64,000 bases of DNA from Pirellulales bacterium (GTDB lineage: Bacteria; Planctomycetota; Planctomycetia; Pirellulales; UBA1268): the NCBI GenBank assembly GCA_040397585.1, contig JBBAVS010000004.1:717-64716 (forward strand), in the 5' to 3' direction. Below the pieces are notes generated by a model, which searched no databases, was not told the origin of the DNA, and worked only from the letters and a program-made list of their open reading frames with translations. The translations under genes and the position numbers were made by a program. Every line of letters begins with the position of its first letter. Position 1 is the first letter of the stretch. Shown in pieces: positions 3,442 to 15,774 of this stretch.

Positions 3442-4116
3442 GTGCCGGGGCGAGGTTTTTCCTCGCCACCGACGGGAACGGAGTTTGCGCCAGGCGAGTC
3501 GCCGGTTTCGAGCCCTTTCAGCCATGTGTTACGCAGAAAGTTTCCCGAAGTGCCCATCCTTCCCAAGCAGCGAGACATCTATCCGCTCGGGCTGTTCGAT
3601 GAGCCGGAGCCGAGCCATGTGGTCGCCCCCGATGGCCATTGGGTGGCGTTCTACACGCTGGCTCGCCGCGAAAAGGACCTCATGCGGCGGTTGGAGGCTC
3701 TCGGCGTGCCCTTCTACGCCCCGCTCATCCAGCGGCGACTCCCTTCCGCTGGCGGCCGTGTCCGCACATCCTACGTTCCGCTCTTCCCAGGCTACGTGTT
3801 TTCCCTCGTTGACGATGAGCAGCGGCGCGCGGCCTTGGGCACGAACACGATCTCCCGCTGGCTTTCCGTTCCCGACGAGCGAATGCTTGAGCATGACCTT
3901 CGGGGCATCAAGCGACTCATCGACATCGACAAGCCGCTCACCCCGGAGGCGCGGCTCGAGCCGGGCCAGCTCGTTCGCGTTCGCAGCGGGCCGCTGCGCG
4001 GCACGGAAGGCACGGTCGTGGGCCGGAAGGGTTCACAGCGGCTCATCGTCGCGGTGCACTTCCTGAATCAGGGCGCCTCGATCGAGCTCGAAGACGTGGA
4101 TGTCGAGCGATTGTGA
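3442..4116 (+). CDS. NusG-family paralog (RfaH/UpxY/LoaP-like transcription antiterminator); true start may be in-frame GTG 3526 or GTG 3619
   Basis: NGN-like segment WVAFYTLARREKDLMRRLEALGVPFYAPL...YVPLFPGYVFS. KOW-like segment GQLVRVRSGPLRGTEGTVVGRKGSQRLIVAV. It is the first gene of a long co-directional polysaccharide gene run. Confidence 0.8.
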   Translation: MPGRGFSSPPTGTEFAPGESPVSSPFSHVLRRKFPEVPILPKQRDIYPLGLFDEPEPSHVVAPDGHWVAFYTLARREKDLMRRLEALGVPFYAPLIQRRLPSAGGRVRTSYVPLFPGYVFSLVDDEQRRAALGTNTISRWLSVPDERMLEHDLRGIKRLIDIDKPLTPEARLEPGQLVRVRSGPLRGTEGTVVGRKGSQRLIVAVHFLNQGASIELEDVDVERL

Positions 4117-4135: not shown

Positions 4136-6160
4136 ATGACTGCCAAACGCTCTTGGTACGAACAGTTGCAGAACTCTACGTGGCTGAAATCGCGTTGGCC
4201 CACGCGCGAGTCATTGGTGGTCGCGGCGCTTTTGGCCGTCATCTTTCAGGTCACCTACCTGTTGTCTTTTCTGATCCGTGGCGAGCTTCTCTTCAAGCCG
4301 TCGGACGCGAAAACGATCATCTCGACGATTGGCTACGTTGTGGCCTTGAAAACCCTCGTGTTCTATGTCCGCGGCCTCTGTCACCGGCCGTGGAGGGCGG
4401 CACGGTTCCAGGATCTGAACAGCCTGATTCGCGCATCGACCGCGTCGCTCTTGATCCTCGTCGTCTACAACTACTTCGGCCAATACCTCATTCCCGACCG
4501 CGTGCCGATCCCGCGATCGGCGATGCTGCTCGACTGGGCGTTTACCGTCCTCGGGGTGGGCGGTATGCAGGCCCTCGCGCGAAGCGTCTTCGAAGAGTTG
4601 ATGCCGGCGACGCCTGCCGGCAAGAAGGTCGTTCTCTTGATCGACGCGTCGGAGCCGAGCCGGAGACTCGCCGAGGATCTTGGCCGCAACTGCTTCGTCG
4701 CCGGGTTTCTCGACGACGACCCAGCGCACTACGGCGTTCATTTTGGCAAGGCGCGTGTGCTCGGGCCGGTGGCCATGGCATCCGCCTGTGCAGGACGGCT
4801 GCGGGCGACCGATGTGGTCGTTCGCCAGGGCGCCATGTATGGCAACCGGCTGCAGTCACTCTACGACGCGTGCGCCGCCATCAACGTCCAGGTCAGCATC
4901 GCGGAACCTCCGCCGCTGATCGCCGGCACCACGCCCGTCGAATCTCATCCGGCGAAGGGGCACGGCTTCCGAGTCCGCAATATCGAGTTGCGCGATCTCC
5001 TCTCGCGTCCGCAAGCCAATCTCGCCGACAAGGACGCGCACGTGATGCCATTTCTGCGTGGCAAATCGGTGTTGGTGACCGGCGCGGGAGGCTCGATCGG
5101 AAGCGAGATTTGCCGCCAGGTCATGAGGTTTGGTCCCAAGCGGCTGGTTCTTCTGGAGCGCTCGGAGTACTCCTTGTTCGCGATCCATCGCGACATCGGG
5201 ATGCTCTATCCTCAATCGGTGACCGAGATCATCCCGGCTTTGGGCGATGTAACCAACGTCGATCGAACGGACCGCCTCCTGGCAGATCACAAGCCCGACG
5301 TGATCGTGCATGCTGCAGCGTTCAAGCACGTGCCTCTCATGGAGACCCATCCGATCGAGGCGGTGGAAAACAACACCCTCGCTACGGCAACGCTTGCCGA
5401 ACTCGCGGATGCACACGGGGTCGAGGCCTTTGTCGCCTTATCGACCGACAAGGCCGTCCATCCGTCCAGCATCATGGGAGCCTCCAAACTCGTCGCTGAG
5501 AGGTTTCTGCAGGCCTTTGGGCAGGCGTCTCGCACGAGGTTCGTGTCCGTTCGATTCGGCAACGTGCTGGGGTCGAGCGGCAGCGCGGTGCCGATTTTCG
5601 AGGACCAGCTGTCACGAGGCCTGCCGATCACCATCACGCATCCCGACGTGCGTCGCTACTTCATGACGATCGACGAGGCTGCCCAGTTGGTGCTCTTCGC
5701 GGGATCAATCAAGGGCTCCGGTGGCACATTTGTGCTCGAAATGGGCGATTCGCTCCGGATGGTGGATCTGGTCCATAGCCTTGCTTTCCTCATGCAAGTG
5801 CCCCGTGAAGACGTGAACATCCGCTATTGCGGATTGCGGCCCGGAGAGAAACTCGACGAGGAGTTGTTCTTCGAAGACGAAAGTCGTGAACTCACCGACA
5901 ATCCGCTGGTCACGCGGGTCACCCGTCCGACCCGATCCCTCGATGAGGTTCGTGGCTGGCTTGCAGAACTCAAGGATGCAGCCGCATCGGATCCGCAGGC
6001 GGCGGCCGCGGTGCTGATGGGCATCGCGCTGAATGACTGCGGGACTCATGTCGCCCAACACCCCGGCGCACCGTTTCCCGGCAGCAGCGTCGATTCCGAG
6101 GAGCCGACCGGGCATCGGGGTGCGGCAACGGCTTACTCCGAGATGCCTCGGTTGGGATGA
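4136..6160 (+). CDS. Membrane-anchored nucleotide-sugar 4,6-dehydratase/epimerase, CapD/WbpM/PglF family
   Basis: The N-terminus has several TM segments. It is followed by the Rossmann motif VLVTGAGGSIGSEICRQV, then HAAAFKHVPLME, STDKAV and FGNVLGSSGS. Confidence 0.9.
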   Translation: MTAKRSWYEQLQNSTWLKSRWPTRESLVVAALLAVIFQVTYLLSFLIRGELLFKPSDAKTIISTIGYVVALKTLVFYVRGLCHRPWRAARFQDLNSLIRASTASLLILVVYNYFGQYLIPDRVPIPRSAMLLDWAFTVLGVGGMQALARSVFEELMPATPAGKKVVLLIDASEPSRRLAEDLGRNCFVAGFLDDDPAHYGVHFGKARVLGPVAMASACAGRLRATDVVVRQGAMYGNRLQSLYDACAAINVQVSIAEPPPLIAGTTPVESHPAKGHGFRVRNIELRDLLSRPQANLADKDAHVMPFLRGKSVLVTGAGGSIGSEICRQVMRFGPKRLVLLERSEYSLFAIHRDIGMLYPQSVTEIIPALGDVTNVDRTDRLLADHKPDVIVHAAAFKHVPLMETHPIEAVENNTLATATLAELADAHGVEAFVALSTDKAVHPSSIMGASKLVAERFLQAFGQASRTRFVSVRFGNVLGSSGSAVPIFEDQLSRGLPITITHPDVRRYFMTIDEAAQLVLFAGSIKGSGGTFVLEMGDSLRMVDLVHSLAFLMQVPREDVNIRYCGLRPGEKLDEELFFEDESRELTDNPLVTRVTRPTRSLDEVRGWLAELKDAAASDPQAAAAVLMGIALNDCGTHVAQHPGAPFPGSSVDSEEPTGHRGAATAYSEMPRLG

Positions 6161-7392
6161 CGACGCTTCCTGTGAATCACGAGCGTTGGCGAGTGCCGTT
6201 CATGCGGCCGGATTTGCCGGAGTATGCAGAAGTGGCCGGCGCGATCACGGCCGCGTTCTCCGCAGGCATGCTCACGAAGGGCGATCAACTTCGTGGCTTC
6301 GAGAGCGACGCCTCGGCGATGATCGGAACCAGCGAGGCTGTGGGGGTGTCGAGCTGCACCTCTGGCCTGATGCTCGTGCTTGGCGCGCTGCGGCGGCTGG
6401 CAACCGTGGCGAAGTCGTGCGCGGCGGCGGGCGGGTGCGCAGGGGCGGCGTCCGCTGGCGATCACCGCGACGAAGTGATCGTGCCGAGTTTCATTTTCCT
6501 CGCCGCTCCAGCCTCGATCCTGTGGGCGGGGTACCGCCCCGTCTTCGTCGAAGTCAATCCTGAGACCTTCACGATTGATCCTCATGCCGTGCGGGCGGCC
6601 CTTTCGCCGCGGACGGCCGCGGTTCTGGGTTGCCACACCTTCGGGTGCCCGTGCGACGTCGAGGAGCTTGCATCGATCACGACCGCCGCCGGTGTTCCCT
6701 TGATTATCGACGCCGCGCACGGCTTCGGGGCATCCCGCCGCGGCCGTCCGGTTGGGGCTGGGGCGCTCGCCCAAGTGTTCAGCTTGTCCCCCACGAAACT
6801 GGTGGTGGCGGGAGAGGGTGGCCTTGTCGCAACATCGTGTTCCTGCCTCGCCGATCTCATCCGCATCGGTAGGGAGTACGGGAACGACGGGCGGTACGGA
6901 TGCGATGCGGCTGGGCTGAACGGTCGTTTGCCCGAAGTCTCTGCCATCATCGGCCGGGCGTCGCTCAGGCGGCTTCCGGAAGTGGCAGAGAAACGCCGGG
7001 AGGCATCACGGGCGTACGTCGACGCCCTGGAAGGAGTACCCGGCGTTGGGTTCCAGTCGATCCCCGCGGATTGCCAAAGCAGCTGGAAGGATTTCTGCAT
7101 CTCGATCAATGAGCGGGAAGCCAAACTCACTCGCAACGATCTGATGGGCGCCCTCGCCGCGAGGGGCATCGATACCCGCGCGTATTACTCCCCCGCCTGT
7201 CATCAAATGCGGGCCTTTGCGGAATACTTCGGTGATCGGCCGCCGCTGTCGATCACCGATCGGCTTGCGGCGAGCCTGCTCGCTCTGCCGATGGGCGCGC
7301 ACGTGACCTGCGAAGTGGCACGCGAGGTGGCGGCACAGGTTCGTGAGGCGGTTTTGGAAAGCCAAGAGGCCCGGCATGCCCGGTCTCGCTGA
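6157..7392 (+). CDS. DegT/DnrJ/EryC1/StrS-family PLP-dependent sugar aminotransferase
   Basis: IIDAAHGFGA and FSLSPTKLVVAGEGG (PLP lysine context). ATGA overlap with the upstream gene. It carries an unusual Ala/Gly/Cys-rich insert, ATVAKSCAAAGGCAGAASAGDHRDE. Confidence 0.88.
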   Translation: MTTLPVNHERWRVPFMRPDLPEYAEVAGAITAAFSAGMLTKGDQLRGFESDASAMIGTSEAVGVSSCTSGLMLVLGALRRLATVAKSCAAAGGCAGAASAGDHRDEVIVPSFIFLAAPASILWAGYRPVFVEVNPETFTIDPHAVRAALSPRTAAVLGCHTFGCPCDVEELASITTAAGVPLIIDAAHGFGASRRGRPVGAGALAQVFSLSPTKLVVAGEGGLVATSCSCLADLIRIGREYGNDGRYGCDAAGLNGRLPEVSAIIGRASLRRLPEVAEKRREASRAYVDALEGVPGVGFQSIPADCQSSWKDFCISINEREAKLTRNDLMGALAARGIDTRAYYSPACHQMRAFAEYFGDRPPLSITDRLAASLLALPMGAHVTCEVAREVAAQVREAVLESQEARHARSR

Positions 7393-8521
7393 AGCCGTCA
7401 AGCCGCCAGCCTTTCCGTCGCTCGATTCGATCGAGTCTGCGCTGTGGCCCGGAGCCGTGGTTCTCGTCTTCGCGGTCACCGCGGTGATGGTGGATGTGAT
7501 GATCATCCTCTCCACAAGGTTTCGACTCGTCGATCTGCCGAATCGCAGGAGTGCTCATGCCCTGCCGACCGCCCGCGGCGGCGGGATTGCCATCGTGATC
7601 ATGGTGTGCGTTTCGGCTCTGCTGACGGTGTTTCGCTGGCCGCAACTCGTCCCCCGCGTGCTCCTCGGCGTGATCCTGCCCGGATTGGCGATAGCAAGCG
7701 TAGGGATCGTCGACGACATCCGGCCTCTTCGTCCCTCGTTGCGGCTTGTGATTCAGGTTGCCGTTGCGGCGCTGATGACGGCCGTTCTTCAGCCCCTGCA
7801 AGGCATTCGCTTGCCGGGTATCGGAGACTTCGGCTTCGGCCCGTTCGCATGGCCGCTCACGATGATCTGGATCGTCGGCATGATCAACGCCTACAACTTC
7901 ATCGACGGCTCCGACGGAATGGCAGGGCTGGCCGGGGTGGTCGTCGGAACCTCGATGGCGGCCGTCGGATTCGAGACGGGCGCACTGGCGGCGATGCTTC
8001 TGGCTGCATTCGCGGCCGCGGCGTCCGGCGGATTTCTGGTGTTTAACTGGCAACCCGCCCGCGTGTTCATGGGCGACGTTGGCAGCGGTTTTCTCGGGCT
8101 GTTTTTTAGCGCGATTCCACTGCTGTTCACGCAGCCAACAAGCGAAACGTTCCTGCCGGCGATCCTCTGCCTTTGGCCCTACGTGTACGACACGCTCCTT
8201 TCGGTGGTGCGGCGCCTGTGGCACCGGAGGAATCCTTTCCAGCCGCATCGTGAGTTCTTGTTTCACCGCCTGATCCGCAGCGGCGTGAATCATGCAGATG
8301 CGGCATTGCTGTACGGGATCATGTCAGCATTCGGGGGCTTGCTGGGGTTCGCCATGGTCGACCCCGCCGCACCGCCGGCGCTTCGCGATGGTGCGCCGGT
8401 GCTGATCGCGGTCCTTGCCTTCATGATGACGTTTTTTATCGAGCGCCGTTGTCGCCAGGTAGGGCTGCCCTCCGCCGCCACGGCGTACTCGTCGGCCCTT
8501 CAAGAGCCGCCTTGTACGTAA
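7376..8521 (+). CDS. Polyprenyl-phosphate HexNAc-1-phosphate transferase, MraY/WecA family (glycosyl transferase family 4)
   Basis: Polytopic membrane protein with NAYNFIDGSDGMAG and VFMGDVGSGFLG motifs. Start is taken at MPGLAEA (ATG 7376), overlapping the upstream stop. Confidence 0.88.
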   Translation: MPGLAEAVKPPAFPSLDSIESALWPGAVVLVFAVTAVMVDVMIILSTRFRLVDLPNRRSAHALPTARGGGIAIVIMVCVSALLTVFRWPQLVPRVLLGVILPGLAIASVGIVDDIRPLRPSLRLVIQVAVAALMTAVLQPLQGIRLPGIGDFGFGPFAWPLTMIWIVGMINAYNFIDGSDGMAGLAGVVVGTSMAAVGFETGALAAMLLAAFAAAASGGFLVFNWQPARVFMGDVGSGFLGLFFSAIPLLFTQPTSETFLPAILCLWPYVYDTLLSVVRRLWHRRNPFQPHREFLFHRLIRSGVNHADAALLYGIMSAFGGLLGFAMVDPAAPPALRDGAPVLIAVLAFMMTFFIERRCRQVGLPSAATAYSSALQEPPCT

Positions 8522-9135
8522 CGAGTCTCAAGCGAGTGTTCGATGTTGCGGGAGCCACGGTGTTGCTGGTGGCGCTGGCGCCTCTCATGGTCGGCGTGGC
8601 GCTCGTCGTATGGCTGGTTCATGGGCGACCCGTTTTGTTTCGTGACGAGCGGGCTGGGCTTAACGGCGAGCGGATCGGCGTGACCAAGTTTCGATCAATG
8701 CGATCGCCTTCAGAGACTGCAGCAGGGTCATGCACGGACGAAGAACGCCTGACGCCGCTGGGCAGATTCCTGCGTCGCACGAGCCTCGACGAACTCCCCC
8801 AGTTGTTCAGCGTCATCCGGGGTGACATGAGCCTCGTCGGGCCGCGTCCGTTGCCGATGCGATATGTGTCCCGATACACGCCGCGGCAGGCGACGCGCCT
8901 GCGGGTTCGCCCCGGTTTGACGGGCTGGGCGCAGATTCACGGCCGCAACTCGCTCGCATGGCCAGAGCGTCTGGAATACGACGCCCAATACGTGGAAATG
9001 GCAAACCGCTGGTGGTCGCCGCTGCTCGACCTTTGGATCATCGCGGCGACCGTCGTTCAGGTGATTTGGCAGGCGGTCACGGGAAGGGGTGTTTCGTCTC
9101 CGGGGTATGCCACCATGCAGGAGTTCGCCCCGTGA
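8449..9135 (+). CDS. Small monotopic phosphoglycosyl transferase (bacterial sugar transferase, PglC/WbaP C-terminal type); start uncertain
   Basis: KRVFDVAGATVLLVALAPLMVGVALVVWL membrane hairpin, KFRSM, and DELPQLFSVIRGDMSLVGPRPL. Confidence 0.88.
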   Translation: MSPGRAALRRHGVLVGPSRAALYVTSLKRVFDVAGATVLLVALAPLMVGVALVVWLVHGRPVLFRDERAGLNGERIGVTKFRSMRSPSETAAGSCTDEERLTPLGRFLRRTSLDELPQLFSVIRGDMSLVGPRPLPMRYVSRYTPRQATRLRVRPGLTGWAQIHGRNSLAWPERLEYDAQYVEMANRWWSPLLDLWIIAATVVQVIWQAVTGRGVSSPGYATMQEFAP

Positions 9136-9392
9136 GCGAGTCCGTGCCTGCCGCGATCGCCGCCGCCATTCGCACGGTGCTCCACGACACCGGCCGCAAT
9201 GCGAAGTCCATCGAACCCGAGATGCTTCTGGCGTCCGACCTGGGTCTCGACTCGCTCGATCTCGCCCAGACGATCGTGCTTCTCGAACGGTCGCTGGGAG
9301 TTGATCCGTTCCGTTCCGGGGGCGGCACGCGTCCGGTCATTCGCACGTTCGCGGATCTCGTGGCGATCTACACGGAGGCACTGGGCCGGTGA
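9132..9392 (+). CDS. Acyl carrier protein
   Basis: 86 aa. GTG start in a GTGA overlap with the upstream stop. DLGLDSLDLAQ phosphopantetheine-attachment context. Confidence 0.8.
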   Translation: MSESVPAAIAAAIRTVLHDTGRNAKSIEPEMLLASDLGLDSLDLAQTIVLLERSLGVDPFRSGGGTRPVIRTFADLVAIYTEALGR

Positions 9393-10756
9393 CGTCAGGC
9401 ATCGACATTTCTCGAATCCACCGAGAGCCGGCTCCGGAGCGGCTCGCCCTGGCGATCGACGAGGTCGCACGGCAGTCTCCCGAACTGGTGGCCGTGGTGA
9501 CCGGGGCCGGAGGTTCGCAGCGCCGGGCCACCACGTTTGTCGAGCTCGCCGGCAAGGTAGCTGCGATCGAGGCAGGCCTGAAGTCCGCGGCACCCTCCGG
9601 CGTGATCGTGCGGTGTCGCGCGGTCGATGCGATCGTCGCCGTGGCGGCGGCATCTGGCCGTCAGGGTGTTCCAGTCGCGTTGCTCGCCGACGACGCTCGT
9701 GATCTGGTCGGCGACCTGAGCGGTTGGCTCGTAATCGACGACGCGCTGTCCATGTCGCCGGCCACACCCGGGTGCGGTTTGGATCGCGACGATGTGCCGC
9801 ACGTCGTGGTGGCCACGTCTGGCACGAGCGGCCCGCCGAAACTTGTCCAGCGAACGTGGGACGCCGTTCTGGCTGCCGCTCGGCTTGCTGAGCAGTGGCA
9901 GGGGCTCGGCTGGCTTCTGGCTTACGACGCCACCCGGTGGGCAGGTATCCAGGTGTGGGTGCAGTCGCTGCTCACGGGCGGTCGGCTGGTCGTTCCGGCA
10001 TCACGCGATCCCGACGTCGTGGCTCAGGCGATCGTGAACGAAGAGGTCGCGATTCTCCCGGCCACGCCCACGCTTCTGCGGCGGCTGATCGCCTCGGCGG
10101 ATCCGGCGGTCCTGTCGCAGGCGGTGGCGCAGCGGATCACACTGGGCGGCGAGGCGGCTGATGGCCCGCTTCTCGAGCAGACCAGGGCGACGTTTCCCGG
10201 GGCGAAGATCACGCACGTCTATGCCACCACGGAGCTCGGAGAGGTCTTTCGCGTGGCCGACGGTCGTCCCGGTTTTCCGGCGAGCTGGTTGGGTCGCGAG
10301 CTCCCTGGGGGCTCGCGGCTTTCCACGCGGCGCGACGGCGAGTTGTTGGTGCAGCTATCTCGCGACACCGCCGAGGTTGCCACGGGCGACGTGGTCGAAC
10401 GCCGGGGCGACCGCTTCGAATTTACGGGCCGTCGCAGCGACGTGATCGTCGTGGGCGGGGCCAAGGTGTTTCCGAAGCGCGTCGAAGAGGTTCTGCGCGG
10501 CGTGCCGGGAGTGATCGAGGCCCGGGTATATGGACAGCCAAGTGCGATCACGGGAGAACTCGTGGCCGCGGAGATCGTGCTGGCGAGCCCGCTTCCCGAT
10601 GGCACGAGCCCCGAGAGCATTCGCGCCGCAGTATTGGCATCATGCCGCGAGTCGCTCGAGCCACACGGAGTGCCAAGGATTCTTGACATCGTGAAGCGCA
10701 TCGTCACCACATCAGCAGGCAAAACCTCCCGCCGCCCCGCCGCCTCCGCCCCATGA
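9389..10756 (+). CDS. AMP-dependent (adenylate-forming) ligase, acyl-ACP/CoA synthetase-like
   Basis: AMP-binding core VVATSGTSGPPKLV, plus YATTELGE and a terminal GKTSRR. GTGA overlap with the ACP gene. Confidence 0.85.
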   Translation: MTSGIDISRIHREPAPERLALAIDEVARQSPELVAVVTGAGGSQRRATTFVELAGKVAAIEAGLKSAAPSGVIVRCRAVDAIVAVAAASGRQGVPVALLADDARDLVGDLSGWLVIDDALSMSPATPGCGLDRDDVPHVVVATSGTSGPPKLVQRTWDAVLAAARLAEQWQGLGWLLAYDATRWAGIQVWVQSLLTGGRLVVPASRDPDVVAQAIVNEEVAILPATPTLLRRLIASADPAVLSQAVAQRITLGGEAADGPLLEQTRATFPGAKITHVYATTELGEVFRVADGRPGFPASWLGRELPGGSRLSTRRDGELLVQLSRDTAEVATGDVVERRGDRFEFTGRRSDVIVVGGAKVFPKRVEEVLRGVPGVIEARVYGQPSAITGELVAAEIVLASPLPDGTSPESIRAAVLASCRESLEPHGVPRILDIVKRIVTTSAGKTSRRPAASAP

Positions 10757-10765
10757 AAAAAGAAA

Positions 10766-10806
10766 GTGGGTGCAGGTTTACGTGGGTGCAGGTTTTCAAC
10801 CTGCAC
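10766..10806. repeat. GCAGGTT/AACCTGC palindrome with an upstream duplicated half-site, just after the ligase stop codon
   Basis: gtgggtgcaggttta at 10766-10780 is repeated at 10782-10796. The perfect palindrome gtgcaggtt-ttc-aacctgcac lies at 10786-10806. Confidence 0.85.
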
Positions 10807-10900
10807 ATCCCCCACCCCATCGTCCTCCCTCACCGCCCTCCCGCAAACACCGCCCCGCCCTCTCCCCGCCTCCCGTGTCCCCGTCCCCCGTCTCCGTGAT
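10801..10900 (+). promoter_or_regulatory. C-rich, G-poor intercistronic tract (candidate rut-like Rho loading site)
   Basis: Hand count over 10801-10900 gives about 60 C versus about 13 G on the coding strand. The tract lies between the ligase stop and the likely SDR start. Confidence 0.3.
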
Positions 10901-11606
10901 CTCTGGTGGCTCTCGTGGCCTGGGGTTTGCGATCGTTGAATCGCTCCTCGCCCGCGGCAACCGCGTCGCCACGTTCTCGCGATCCGGTTCCCCTGCCCTC
11001 GAAGCCCTCGTCAACGCCCATCCCGATCTCCTTTACGTGCGCCTGGCGGATGCGGCGAGTTTGGCTGCGATTCGCGAGTTCGTGGCTGGCGTGGCAGCGA
11101 GGTTTGGCCGGATCGACCACTGCATTGCAAACGCCGCGATTGCCCATGAGGGTGTGCTCGCCACCATGCGAGACGACGAGATCGAGTCGATGGTCGCGGT
11201 GAACCTCACCGGTTCGATCGTGTTCGTCCGCGAGTGCGTGCGGCAGATGCTGATCGGCGCTGACTGCGATCGCTCGGTGACGCTGATCTCGTCGGTTGTC
11301 GCTGCGAACGGGTCGCCGGGCTTGTCCGTCTATGCGGCCACGAAGGCGGCCCTCGAGGGCTTTGCAGTCAGTCTTGCCCGCGAACTCGGGCCGCGCGGAA
11401 TCCGGGTGAACGCGATCGCCCCTGGATTTCTCGAGACGGAACTCTCCGCTTCGCTATCGCAGGACAACCGCGACCGCGTCGCTCGGCGCTCTTCAGTTGG
11501 GAGGATTGGCTCGGCCAATGACGTGATCGGACCGGTCGCTTTTCTTACGGGCTGCACCTCGGCATTCATTACTGGTCAGGTCGTGGGGGTGAACGGTGGT
11601 GCGTGA
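10875..11606 (+). CDS. Short-chain dehydrogenase/reductase, FabG-like (3-oxoacyl-ACP reductase type)
   Basis: VISGGSRGLGFAIVESLLARG Rossmann motif, NAAI, and catalytic YAATKAAL (YxxxK). Start is set at in-frame GTG 10875; GTG 10896 is also possible. The track ORF from 10770 runs through the palindrome and the Pro-rich tract. Confidence 0.82.
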   Translation: MSPSPVSVISGGSRGLGFAIVESLLARGNRVATFSRSGSPALEALVNAHPDLLYVRLADAASLAAIREFVAGVAARFGRIDHCIANAAIAHEGVLATMRDDEIESMVAVNLTGSIVFVRECVRQMLIGADCDRSVTLISSVVAANGSPGLSVYAATKAALEGFAVSLARELGPRGIRVNAIAPGFLETELSASLSQDNRDRVARRSSVGRIGSANDVIGPVAFLTGCTSAFITGQVVGVNGGA

Positions 11607-12285
11607 CACGCCGTCGCCGACTTTTCGGGCATCTCGATGCGAGCGCATCCTTATCGTTGGTGCCGGCGGCTTTGGTCGCGAAGTGTTGCAGTGGGCGCTG
11701 CATGCGTGGCCCGATGAGGCCCACAAGATCGCAGGATTCCTATCGGACGACCCCGAGGCACTCGCTGGGCAAAACTCCCAGTTCTCAATCATCGGCCCGG
11801 CAGCAGGTTATGAGCCCGCGTCGGGCGATGGTTTGGTGCTGGCGATCGGTATCCCGGGGATCCGGCGTCGCGTTGCGGAGATGCTGGTTGACCGCGGGGC
11901 GAACTTTCTTTCGCTCGTCCACCCCACGGCAATCGTCGCTAAGTCCGCGGTGGTGGGCAATGGAACGATCCTGTGCCCCTACACGATCGTGAGCGACAAC
12001 TGCCGACTCGGGCGGTTTGTGCTGATGAACTACCACTCGTCGGTGGGGCATGACGCGTCGGCGGCTGACTTCGGTGTGTTTTCGCCCTACGCCACGCTGG
12101 GAGGCGGGGCCGCGGTTGGCGAAGATGTTTTCCTCGGCTTGCACGCATCCGTAGGACCGCACGTGTCACTCGGGGACCGCTGCAAGGTGAGCGCGGGGTC
12201 TGCCGCGCTGGCGACCGCACCCGCCGACGTGGTAATCTGGGGTTCACCGGGGCGGCATCGCCGTCGGGTGGAGATCGCTCCTTAG
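11596..12285 (+). CDS. NeuD/PglD-family left-handed beta-helix sugar N-acyltransferase
   Basis: N-terminal Rossmann-like ILIVGAGGFGREVLQWA, followed by hexapeptide repeats (VVGNGTILCPYTIVSDNCRLGRFVLMNYHSSVGHD...). Confidence 0.8.
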   Translation: MVRDTPSPTFRASRCERILIVGAGGFGREVLQWALHAWPDEAHKIAGFLSDDPEALAGQNSQFSIIGPAAGYEPASGDGLVLAIGIPGIRRRVAEMLVDRGANFLSLVHPTAIVAKSAVVGNGTILCPYTIVSDNCRLGRFVLMNYHSSVGHDASAADFGVFSPYATLGGGAAVGEDVFLGLHASVGPHVSLGDRCKVSAGSAALATAPADVVIWGSPGRHRRRVEIAP

Positions 12286-13872: not shown

Positions 13873-15047
13873 CGAAGCTATCTCGACGCTCAGAATCCCC
13901 CCCCCGTGTGCTGATCGTTCATCCGGCCATGGCGCCCTACCGCCTCGATCTCTTTAACTCGCTGCACGACACGCTTTCAGTGCGGGTCCTTTTTGCGCAA
14001 CCGCTCCCGGGCTACGACGCCAACCTTGATCGACGGGCCCTCCAGGATGCGTTTCGGTGCGAACACACCTTGCTCTCAGAACACAACGCTCCCTCCTTGA
14101 TGGCGATCGCGCGGCGAATGTGCTCGGAGATAAGCCGCTTGCGTCCCGACGTGCTCGTTACCCATGAGTTCTCCCAGGCAAGTGCCCTGGCCGCAGCGAT
14201 CGTCCGTTTCCGAGGCCGCCGCCTCCGCCACGTTGTCTGGACCACGAAGAATCCACACGAGATCGCTGCTACCCGCGGCATCCGCCTCGCGGCGATGCGC
14301 TGGCTGGCGCGCACCGCAGCCGCGGTCATGACCTACTCTGCAGAGGCTGCGGATCGACTCGCCAGCGTCGCGCACATGTCCCGCGACCGCTTCTTCGTCT
14401 GCGCGAATCACCAGGATCCCGTCCGGCTGCGTGGGTTGGCGGCGGAATCACTTCCGGCGGTGCTCGCCGAATGTCAGCGGCTCGATATTCTGCGCCGTAG
14501 CGCCGTGGTCGTCGTCTCTCGGCTCGCCGAGGAGAAAAACATCTCCGCGACGATCGCGGCCTTTCAGCAGGCGTTTGCCGACGACGACGACGTGTGTCTC
14601 GTGATTATCGGCGAGGGCCCGCTGCGCGTCGCTCTCGAGGATGCTGCGGCCGCGGGACCGGGTCGGGAGCGAATCCACTTTCTTGGACAGCGGGCGTCGC
14701 CTGCCGTGCAGGCTTGGCTCGCCGTGGCCTCGCTTTCGGTGTTGGCGAGCACGCGCGAGCCATACGGCGCAGTCGTCGGCGAGTCGTTGATTCAAGGCAC
14801 GCCGGTTTTATGTTCGGAAGCGGCTGGCGCTGCGTCACTCATCGACTCGCCATCGAAGGGCGCAGTGTTCTCGCCCGAACGGGTTGATCTGCTTGCCGCG
14901 CTGCTCCAAGCCTATCGGCCTGCCTTCGCCCCGATCGAGCAACTGGTCGCCAAGGCGAAGCCGCGGATCCCAGCCCCGACGGTCGCTGATGACGTCGCTG
15001 GGTTCGTGGCCGCAGTGTCGTATGCCGCGGGAGGTCGCCATGGCTGA
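13869..15047 (+). CDS. Glycosyltransferase family 1 (GT-B)
   Basis: VVVSRLAEEKN and the ASTREPYGAVVGESLIQGTPVL (EX7E) motif. GTGA overlap with the upstream gene. Confidence 0.82.
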   Translation: MTKLSRRSESPPRVLIVHPAMAPYRLDLFNSLHDTLSVRVLFAQPLPGYDANLDRRALQDAFRCEHTLLSEHNAPSLMAIARRMCSEISRLRPDVLVTHEFSQASALAAAIVRFRGRRLRHVVWTTKNPHEIAATRGIRLAAMRWLARTAAAVMTYSAEAADRLASVAHMSRDRFFVCANHQDPVRLRGLAAESLPAVLAECQRLDILRRSAVVVVSRLAEEKNISATIAAFQQAFADDDDVCLVIIGEGPLRVALEDAAAAGPGRERIHFLGQRASPAVQAWLAVASLSVLASTREPYGAVVGESLIQGTPVLCSEAAGAASLIDSPSKGAVFSPERVDLLAALLQAYRPAFAPIEQLVAKAKPRIPAPTVADDVAGFVAAVSYAAGGRHG

Positions 15048-15774
15048 AGCAGCCGTCTCCCGTTCGGAGCCGAAGGAAGCCTTCCCATACCGTCCGCCCA
15101 GCGACGAGTTGCGTCGTCGCTATGCGGAGATTTTCGCAATCGACAGTCCGCTGCCGCTGCGGGTTGGGAAGGTTCTCTTTGACAAGGTGGCGGCCGGCTT
15201 GATCCTCCTGGTGGCATCGCCAGTTCTGCTGCTCATCAAGGTGGCCTACACCATTGAGGGCTGGCTGATCCCGGAAAACGCCGGGCCTATGTTTTTCCAC
15301 TACAACGCCATGAGCGCAGGCCGCGTGATTCCAAAGTACAAGATCCGGCTCATCAAGCGAAAGTATATCGACGCCGAAGGCGCTGCCCGCGGGGATTGGC
15401 ACGCCTTCCAGGCCGAGTGGACGCCTAGCAGCCGCACCCACACCGGCCACTTCGTCAAGAAGTATTATCTCGACGAGTTGCCCCAGTTTTTCAGCGTACT
15501 CAAGGGTGACATGAGCCTCGTTGGGCCACGGCCGCTGGCCGTGCATCATTACGAGCGCGACCTCGCCCAGGGCAATGTGTCCCGGAAACTCCTCAAGGGC
15601 GGGATCCTCGGCATGGGCCACATCCGCAAGGGCACGAGCGAGATGGGCGACCCGTCGTTCGAATACGAATACATCGACCACTACATTCACTATCCCTGGT
15701 GGCGGCTGCTCGCGCTTGACCTGTGGATCATCTGGCGGGGCATTCGCGTGGTGCTCCAGGGGAAGGGACTCTGA
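15040..15774 (+). CDS. Phosphoglycosyl transferase (bacterial sugar transferase family), second copy
   Basis: KVLFDKVAAGLILLVASPVLLLI membrane hairpin and DELPQFFSVLKGDMSLVGPRPL. It carries an insert relative to the 8449 paralog. Confidence 0.85.
   Translation: MAEAAVSRSEPKEAFPYRPPSDELRRRYAEIFAIDSPLPLRVGKVLFDKVAAGLILLVASPVLLLIKVAYTIEGWLIPENAGPMFFHYNAMSAGRVIPKYKIRLIKRKYIDAEGAARGDWHAFQAEWTPSSRTHTGHFVKKYYLDELPQFFSVLKGDMSLVGPRPLAVHHYERDLAQGNVSRKLLKGGILGMGHIRKGTSEMGDPSFEYEYIDHYIHYPWWRLLALDLWIIWRGIRVVLQGKGL

Follow-up and report, generated by a model that had tools for sequence, protein, structure and literature searches.

The window analysed here, a 64,000-nucleotide (nt) stretch of contig JBBAVS010000004.1 from a Pirellulales bacterium, carries a polysaccharide operon in which four genes on the + strand encode an acyl carrier protein (ACP), an adenylating ligase, a short-chain dehydrogenase/reductase (SDR) and an acyltransferase resembling PglD. 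On balance, we read this operon as directing the synthesis of a bacillosamine-type starter sugar whose 4-amino group would be acylated from the dedicated carrier protein rather than from acetyl-CoA. ACP, ligase and SDR are together called the trio below; among characterised proteins, each has its closest relatives in the priming cassettes of the antibiotics mupirocin and thiomarinol. The four gene products named in an earlier sequence-only reading of the window were all recovered with Pfam matches and catalytic motifs, and the genes lie, as that reading had it, after a dehydratase and aminotransferase pair (PF02719, 4100..6160; PF01041, 6157..7392). The strand was verified for all four genes. 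The coordinates of the ACP, ligase and acyltransferase genes were kept, and the SDR start was moved.

The ligase gene (9389..10756, + strand) encodes a 455-aa enzyme of the ANL family with matches to PF00501 and PF13193. The motifs A3 (TSGTSGPPK), A5 (YATTE), A7 (TGD) and A8 (GRRSD..GG) and the A10 lysine, Lys445, are present and invariant across the family. In pairwise alignments, the ligase shares 26% identity with MupQ (E 3e-28) and 28% with TmlQ (E 8e-34). When MupQ and TmlQ were used as queries, the window ligase was the top match in its whole genome; the unrelated ligase MupU picks otherwise. With a profile built from the trio ligases, MupQ-type ligases reach 190-230 bits, MupQ and TmlQ themselves 214-230, compared with 130 bits for MenE, the best of the solved ANL enzymes, 67.5 bits for DltA and 41-62 bits for the other ANL enzymes of the genome. 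In the ligase tree, MupQ and TmlQ are sister to all trio ligases at 99/99, in a small sampling with only five other ANL enzymes as outgroup. On these comparisons, the ligase is a member of the MupQ/TmlQ lineage, as a sister clade, and it is predicted to load an acyl unit onto the ACP. A substrate class based on the A4 motif (YDATRW in the ligase, FDxS in nonribosomal peptide synthetases, NRPS) was considered and dropped, as the Asp falls at different positions in the profile alignments to CBL and to MenE and is a Gln in the alphaproteobacterial clade.

The SDR gene (10875..11606, + strand) encodes a classical SDR (PF13561/PF00106) with the catalytic Asn, Ser and YxxxK residues. It had been described as a FabG-like ketoreductase, which is probably wrong. 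Among solved structures, the top match is MupS (4yxf, E 7e-47), which ranks above every FabG, and the pairwise comparison with MupS gives 39% identity (E 4e-53). The identity to proteins of the MupS clade is 38-44%, compared with 32-35% to FabG proteins, and the signature GGSxGLG / ATFSR is common to the window SDR and the MupS-clade SDRs. In the SDR tree, the trio SDRs and the MupS clade are joined with moderate support (80/81), a long branch included, and a separate group at 100/98 holds a solved FabG and the FabG of the genome itself (contig C83), without the window SDR. With MupS and TmlS as queries, the window SDR is the top match in the whole genome, directly adjacent to the top match of MupQ and TmlQ. 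Against TIGR01830, the FabG model, the SDR scores 170.7, which is under the equivalog cut-off of 297.75. The SDR is therefore probably a relative of MupS and not a housekeeping FabG, and it is predicted to reduce an ACP-bound unit.

The ACP gene (9132..9392, + strand; PF00550) encodes a stand-alone carrier protein of 86 aa and of the MacpD type. Its phosphopantetheine site is Ser41 within the motif LGLDSLDL. The top match among solved structures is MacpD (6tg5), with 47% identity over 43 aa in the pairwise alignment (E 5e-7). The residues Ser41, L42, A45, L51, E52, D58-P59-F60 and Y80 are invariant in the trio ACPs, MacpD and TacpD. MacpD has a C-terminal extension, which the window ACP lacks.

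The comparison thus leads to MupQ/MupS/MacpD from the mupirocin pathway of Pseudomonas fluorescens and to TmlQ/TmlS/TacpD from the thiomarinol pathway. The MupS sequence from the structure alignment was used to fetch the mupirocin locus (L031) and a thiomarinol-type locus (L033). Common to both systems and the window are a stand-alone ACP, an ANL ligase of about 450 aa and an SDR gene next in order after the ligase gene, with a repeat element between the two in the window. All three donor proteins of the window are homologous to the Mup/Tml set, with low identity (26-28% for the ligase, 38-39% for the SDR) and in separate sister clades. From malonyl-CoA or succinyl-CoA, the cassettes form 3-hydroxypropionyl-ACP or 4-hydroxybutanoyl-ACP, the latter group being that of the Tml counterparts (PMC10098928). 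The reductase converts the CoA-thioester end to the alcohol and does not carry out a beta-keto reduction, a function established only for MupQ/S and TmlQ/S (PMC10098928). The client of the Mup and Tml cassettes is a ketosynthase or polyketide synthase (PKS), whereas in the window it would be a PglD-like sugar N-acyltransferase in a polysaccharide operon. True MupS-clade cassettes (50-60% identity to MupS) lie directly upstream of a ketosynthase or a type I PKS. A Pfam scan of the window proteins revealed no ketosynthase in the operon and no acyltransferase besides the PglD-like one. The window trio is cassette-like but, as there is no ketosynthase in the operon, not a PKS primer. Since the true MupS clade differs in both gene order and client, the glycan-linked trio is a sister lineage. 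We know of no description of a MupQ/S/MacpD-type cassette combined with a PglD-like transferase in a Pgl-type block.

The acyltransferase gene (11596..12285, + strand) encodes a left-handed beta-helix N-acyltransferase of 229 aa and of the PglD/VioB/NeuD kind (PF17836 PglD_N and PF00132 Hexapep). Its matches among solved structures are VioB (6e-20), WeeI (5e-19) and PglD (1e-15), and its TIGR03570 score of 153.1 is just below the cut-off of 160.8. His152 is conserved, at the position of the catalytic His in PglD, VioB and WeeI. In the C-terminal beta-helix turns, where VioB, WeeI and PglD have GxG(A/S)...PA, the trio-linked subfamily has SK(V/I)SA(N/G)S...PG, and SPY stands in place of AP(G/N). 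The turns with GxG(A/S)...PA presumably contact the nucleotide end of CoA, as in the PglD structures. The new motif is found in all genomes with a trio-type ligase, including family f106 and genome G333, with G497 as a partial exception: here the ligase is adjacent, yet the motifs of the PglD-like protein are intermediate (SPY, SLSAGA, PA). Seven genomes without a MupQ-family ligase have the usual PglD motif only. Both forms occur together in locus L027, where a copy with the new motif follows the SDR gene and a copy with the usual motif precedes the ACP gene. The pattern of motif and ligase fits a change of donor, though it is confounded by shared ancestry. The PglD-like enzyme is predicted to move an ACP-borne acyl group onto the C4 amine.

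The sugar on which this enzyme would act can be read from the neighboring genes. The dehydratase is of the PglF/WbpM type, a membrane-anchored UDP-GlcNAc 4,6-dehydratase (+ strand; Polysacc_synt_2, E 1.6e-99). Its top NCBIfam model is PseB/FnlA-like, under the cut-off, and the gene is syntenic in six related loci (L004, L006, L008, L011, L013, L015). The aminotransferase is a pyridoxal phosphate (PLP)-dependent enzyme of the DegT/PglE type (+ strand; E 2.6e-83), and its top NCBIfam matches are the C4 aminotransferases DesI and PseC, both under cut-off. A small PglC-like phosphoglycosyl transferase (8449..9135, + strand; PF02397 Bac_transf, E 5.4e-58, residues 28-206) is encoded directly 5' of the ACP gene in all related loci; its true start may lie downstream of 8449. 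Thus, the complete bacillosamine (Pgl) set, with 4,6-dehydratase, C4 aminotransferase, N-acyltransferase and small PglC-type phosphoglycosyl transferase, was found in a single locus. The starter sugar would be a bacillosamine-type 4-amino-4,6-dideoxy-HexNAc.

From the genes, motifs, homology and synteny described above, the following sequence of enzymatic steps can be proposed. The PglF-like dehydratase and the DegT aminotransferase would convert UDP-GlcNAc via a 4-keto-6-deoxy intermediate to UDP-4-amino-4,6-dideoxy-HexNAc. The MupQ-related ligase would adenylate a carboxylate and load it onto holo-ACP, and by analogy with Mup and Tml this carboxylate would be the free one of malonyl-CoA or succinyl-CoA. 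The MupS-related SDR would turn the CoA-thioester end into a primary alcohol, giving 3-hydroxypropanoyl- or 4-hydroxybutanoyl-ACP. With His152 as catalytic residue, the PglD-like enzyme would take the hydroxyacyl group off the ACP and attach it to the C4 amine. The PglC-like transferase would place the sugar phosphate on undecaprenyl phosphate and start a Wzx/Wzy-type polysaccharide. We consider it more likely than not that the PglD-like enzyme receives its acyl group from the trio. Our assignment of this group as an omega-hydroxyacyl (3-hydroxypropanoyl or 4-hydroxybutanoyl) group follows from the Mup/Tml analogy and is tentative. The lack of a ketosynthase or other acyltransferase in the operon fits a self-sufficient cassette fed by a primary metabolite, and the use of malonyl-CoA or succinyl-CoA would account for a cassette that requires no additional genes. 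Amino sugars with 4-hydroxybutyramido, i.e., N-(4-hydroxybutanoyl), groups and N-hydroxyacyl bacillosamines occur in nature (PMC3210612).

The arrangement is conserved among planctomycetes. Relatives of the ligase at 61-89% identity are numerous and all come from planctomycete metagenome-assembled genomes. In 19 fetched loci, in which the full order was read wherever the contig was long enough, the genes follow each other as NusG-like, dehydratase, aminotransferase, GT4, PglC-like, ACP, ligase, SDR and PglD-like. The block PglC-ACP-ligase-SDR-PglD is found in about 20 planctomycete genomes from several families, and at 36-46% identity in L027 (genome G323, family f121) and L059 (genome G497, family f110). 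In three families, the trio sits between the PglC-like and PglD-like genes. The recurrence of this order in the 19 loci and in other families argues that the arrangement is not due to chance. In L006, L011, L013 and L017, an insert of 1-4 kb separates the SDR gene from the PglD-like gene. These inserts were considered as extra biosynthetic genes and set aside, as by eye, from the first residues only, they looked unrelated (ATPase-like, a possible toxin-like ORF).

In a sample of 301 genomes across the phylum, a close ligase is present in only one, namely that of the window itself. In a single-sequence search (E<=1e-40), it was found in 21 of 201 genomes of the order and in 11 of the 16 genomes of the window's family. 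A profile search adds divergent ligases (G333, G497, G304 and genomes of family f125). The cassette with a close ligase is lineage-restricted. None of the five ligase-free family members has a close PglD-like gene; four of them also have no PglC-like gene, and the fifth carries a PglC-PglD fusion of a different type.

Two of the planctomycete loci have additional features. In L027 (6725-16859, G323), two different PglD-like genes flank ACP-ligase-SDR, and a third hexapeptide transferase is present along with an aminotransferase, an epimerase/dehydratase, a PglC-like gene, a formyltransferase and a PIG-L deacetylase. In L015 (13913-16781; G450, contig C39), the ligase and SDR genes occur a second time, a few kb downstream of the first copy. 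Between the two copies is a PglD-like fragment (residues 149-225 only), which looks like a local duplication with decay.

In other bacteria, the trio is combined with other partners. The exopolysaccharide (EPS) loci of Asticcacaulis (L020 4870-9706) and Devosia beringensis (L025 5172-10039) contain a membrane-bound O-acyltransferase (MBOAT), a gene in the position of dltD, an ACP, a trio-type ligase and an SDR. The gene in the DltD position encodes about 350 aa, has no Pfam match and is unclassified. On plasmid p3 of Azospirillum brasilense Sp7 (L030 7385-13940), the genes of an alpha/beta hydrolase and a ketoacyl-ACP synthase III (KAS III) flank the trio. All of them belong to a pseudaminic-acid (pseI) glycosylation island that has a flagellin gene directly downstream of it. 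This island suggests an acylated nonulosonic acid on flagellin. In locus L028, the trio stands beside a second ANL enzyme and a PLP decarboxylase. As the partners vary by bacterium, the trio behaves as a self-contained, portable acyl-donor module for several kinds of transferase. It is possible, and we propose it with some reserve, that glycan biosynthesis has repeatedly taken up the priming cassette as a portable donor of omega-hydroxyacyl groups, working with a PglD-like enzyme in planctomycetes, with an MBOAT in alphaproteobacterial EPS loci and with a KAS III/hydrolase in Azospirillum. The family of trio ligases is widespread in Alphaproteobacteria, including Hyphomonas, Henriciella, Mesorhizobium and Terricaulis.

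A precedent for acylation from a carrier protein is the wfpC-wfpG region of Flavobacterium psychrophilum, which by its description resembles the window in combining pglF and pglE with a locus-specific ACP, a ketoacyl-ACP reductase and a PglD homologue (PMC6519341). There, an ACP, a ketoacyl-ACP synthase, a ketoreductase and the PglD homologue wfpG were assigned to the sugar Qui2NAc4N(3,5-dihydroxyhexanoyl) of a glycan of known structure, and the PglD homologue was predicted to pass the ACP-borne acyl group to UDP-Qui2NAc4NH2 (PMC6519341). The chain is built by two ketoacyl-ACP synthases in F. psychrophilum, whereas the window has a MupQ-type ligase in that place and no ketosynthase. The sequence-only reading had proposed that carrier, ligase and reductase feed the PglD-like enzyme with a custom acyl group, for instance a hydroxylated one. 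This precedent supports the proposal, as do the synteny, the PglD subfamily that goes with the ligase and the lack of another acyltransferase; its FabG detail is probably wrong.

From the bacillosamine pathway of Campylobacter jejuni and Neisseria, homologues of PglF, PglE, PglD and PglC are all present in the window operon. The window differs from this pathway in the carrier cassette between the PglC-like and PglD-like genes, in the altered beta-helix turns, and in an extra WecA-like transferase and a second Bac_transf. In Vibrio cholerae O1, rfbK-O, which are responsible for the tetronate on perosamine, comprise ACP-like, ligase-like, dehydrogenase and hexapeptide acetyltransferase-like genes and place a hydroxy acid on a 4-amino sugar, a logic analogous to the one proposed for the window. 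They include an iron-type alcohol dehydrogenase and a LuxC/E-like protein, compared with an SDR in the window. Apart from the F. psychrophilum paper, a literature search gave nothing useful on ACP-dependent N-acylation of bacillosamine, on tetronate/rfbK-O or on systems of MBOAT, ACP and ligase.

Several observations weigh against acylation from the carrier protein as proposed here. We know of no PglD-family enzyme that was shown to use acyl-ACP, and the solved relatives VioB, WeeI, PglD and PerB use acyl-CoA. The signature of the PglD-like subfamily could be lineage history instead of a change of donor. In genomes of family f106, the PglD-like gene does not adjoin the ligase gene. In L014 and L016, the ligase (62% identical) has no detectable ACP, SDR, PglC-like or PglD-like gene nearby and comes after two GT4 genes. 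The gene order in the window, ACP-ligase-SDR, differs from ligase-SDR-ACP in the PKS cassettes. With 26-28% identity for the ligase and 80/81 for the joint clade of SDR and MupS, both substrate and chemistry may differ from those of the antibiotic pathways. The acyl group and the use of ACP are deduced from sequence. Finally, in L057 and L058 a ligase 44% identical to MupQ is found with an ordinary SDR and a PglD-like protein of the usual motif. Because these two loci hold a distinct variant, the pairing of a MupQ-family ligase with a PglD-like protein arose more than once. In L058 (3748-6878, G304), a small upstream ORF at 3748-4056 may encode an ACP; in L057 (2892-8369, G327), a 353-aa ORF (6105-7166) after the ligase has an N-terminus that is KAS III-like in appearance.

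The trio might also feed the PglD-like enzyme by a more ordinary route, in which the ACP receives a free keto acid (acetoacetate, pyruvate, 2-oxoglutarate or oxaloacetate) from the ligase, the SDR acts as a common ketoreductase and the PglD-like enzyme transfers the product from 3-hydroxybutanoyl-, lactyl-, 2-hydroxyglutaryl- or malyl-ACP. Two sugars of this kind, N-(3-hydroxybutyryl)-bacillosamine and 4-N-(2-hydroxyglutaryl)-bacillosamine, occur in nature (PMC3210612). The SDR retains all catalytic residues of the FabG type and scores well against FabG models and structures, and the best solved relatives found with the ligase family profile are free-acid ligases, e.g., MenE and 4-chlorobenzoate-CoA ligase. 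However, we consider this route unlikely, as all three proteins are nearer to MupQ, MupS and MacpD than to FabG, AcpP or free-acid ligases, and the genome encodes its own FabG elsewhere (contig C83). Somewhat less likely still is a division of labor, in which the PglD-like enzyme depends on acetyl-CoA and makes diNAcBac, and the trio serves another acceptor (O-acylation of a polymer, or a lipid) via a transferase encoded elsewhere. No second acyltransferase was found in the conserved block or in the next 22 kb. In addition, the PglC-like and PglD-like genes enclose the trio in the three families mentioned, and the PglD-like subfamily with altered motifs tracks the trio-type ligase, with a second, canonical copy beside it in L027. 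What speaks for such a division is the acyl-CoA use of the four solved relatives, the separation of the genes in family f106 and the quite different transferase candidates that accompany the trio in alphaproteobacteria and Azospirillum.

The Dlt (DltA-D) and AlmEFG systems also employ a dedicated carrier protein and an ANL ligase and bring an acyl group to an envelope glycopolymer. If the trio were an aminoacyl-carrier system of this kind, the ligase would activate alanine, glycine or serine and the sugar would receive an N-aminoacyl group. We regard this as very improbable. The conserved SDR, an integral part of the window system, has no role in aminoacyl-carrier systems, the transferase of the window is a cytoplasmic PglD-like protein, and the ligase is far from DltA, to which its family profile gives 67.5 bits compared with 214-230 for MupQ and TmlQ. 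The motif YDATRW of the planctomycete ligases resembles the NRPS A4 motif FDxS; however, the putative A4 Asp varies across the family, with Gln in its place in the alphaproteobacterial clade, and its alignment to Asp235 of A-domains is ambiguous. Further points in favor are a match of the ligase to TIGR01733 at 61.6 bits, the existence of N-aminoacyl 4-amino sugars (PMC3210612) and the Dlt-like layout of the alphaproteobacterial loci, where MBOAT, the unclassified gene in the DltD position, carrier and ligase adjoin. Altogether, an amino acid is an unlikely substrate for the ligase.

If acylation from the carrier protein by a Mup/Tml-like route is confirmed, the PglD-like enzyme would be the first of its family to draw an acyl group from an ACP and would add ACP-dependent members to a family regarded as using CoA donors. 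The recently described priming chemistry of Mup and Tml would then extend beyond antibiotics to glycans of the cell surface. N-acyl groups other than acetyl are frequent antigenic determinants on bacillosamine, quinovosamine and nonulosonic acids, and for most of them we know of no genes that supply the group. For 4-hydroxybutanoyl, 3-hydroxypropanoyl and similar groups on bacterial sugars, the recruited cassette would fill this genetic gap, and it could serve as a genomic marker to predict such decorations from sequence. It would also offer a first biochemical handle on the surface polysaccharide of abundant uncultured freshwater planctomycetes, and its parts are small soluble proteins that can be tested directly in E. 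coli.

The four genes had been described as translationally coupled. This applies to the ACP/ligase junction, which is a GTGA overlap, and to the SDR and PglD-like genes, which overlap by 11 nt; the junction between the PglC-like and ACP genes is a GTGA overlap as well. It does not apply to ligase and SDR, which are separated by a gap of 118 nt (10757..10874). This spacer contains, by sequence and predicted hairpin, a palindromic repeat like repetitive extragenic palindromic (REP) elements, GTGGGTGCAGGTTTTCAACCTGCAC, together with a half copy. The core palindrome is present in at least 233 copies in the 4.27-Mb genome, often in tandem arrays and in both orientations. Because the spacer with this genome-wide repeat element intervenes, ligase and SDR are not translationally coupled here. 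In the related locus L001, the SDR start overlaps the end of the ligase-containing ORF. The insertion of the repeat uncoupled a ligase-SDR junction that is coupled in relatives. The spacer also affects the SDR start. An ORF called from 10770 has a Pro-rich N-terminal stretch that is seen in no homologue, and the SDR homologues begin with M(S/T)xxVS(I/V)(I/V)SGGSRGLG right at the ligase stop. Since the homologues share this N-terminus without the Pro-rich stretch, the SDR start is GTG at 10875 and not 10770.

The operon as a whole forms a single long run of genes on the + strand, from about 3.4 to 34 kb of the window. Its first gene (3442-4116, + strand) encodes a NusG/KOW paralogue, which is syntenic in related loci at 62-70% identity and may be an operon-specific antiterminator of the RfaH/UpxY kind. 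Between the aminotransferase and PglC-like genes lies a GT4 gene (7343-8521, + strand) for a WecA/MraY-like transferase. The operon holds three initiating polyprenyl-phosphate sugar-phosphate transferases, namely this GT4 and two Bac_transf proteins (8449-9135 and 14884-15774); the GT4 and the first Bac_transf stay adjacent in all related loci. The PglD-like gene is followed by genes for a predicted membrane protein of 524 aa without a Pfam match, glycosyltransferases and methyltransferases, and further downstream by those for the second Bac_transf, WecG, a Wzx-like flippase and a SASA esterase. In the stretch 12001-40000, beyond the PglD-like gene, the G+C content is 56-61% compared with 65%, and this part of the operon has no counterpart in related loci; low G+C content and the lack of counterparts are typical of a serotype-variable region. 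It contains several FkbM-type methyltransferases and the SASA-family esterase.

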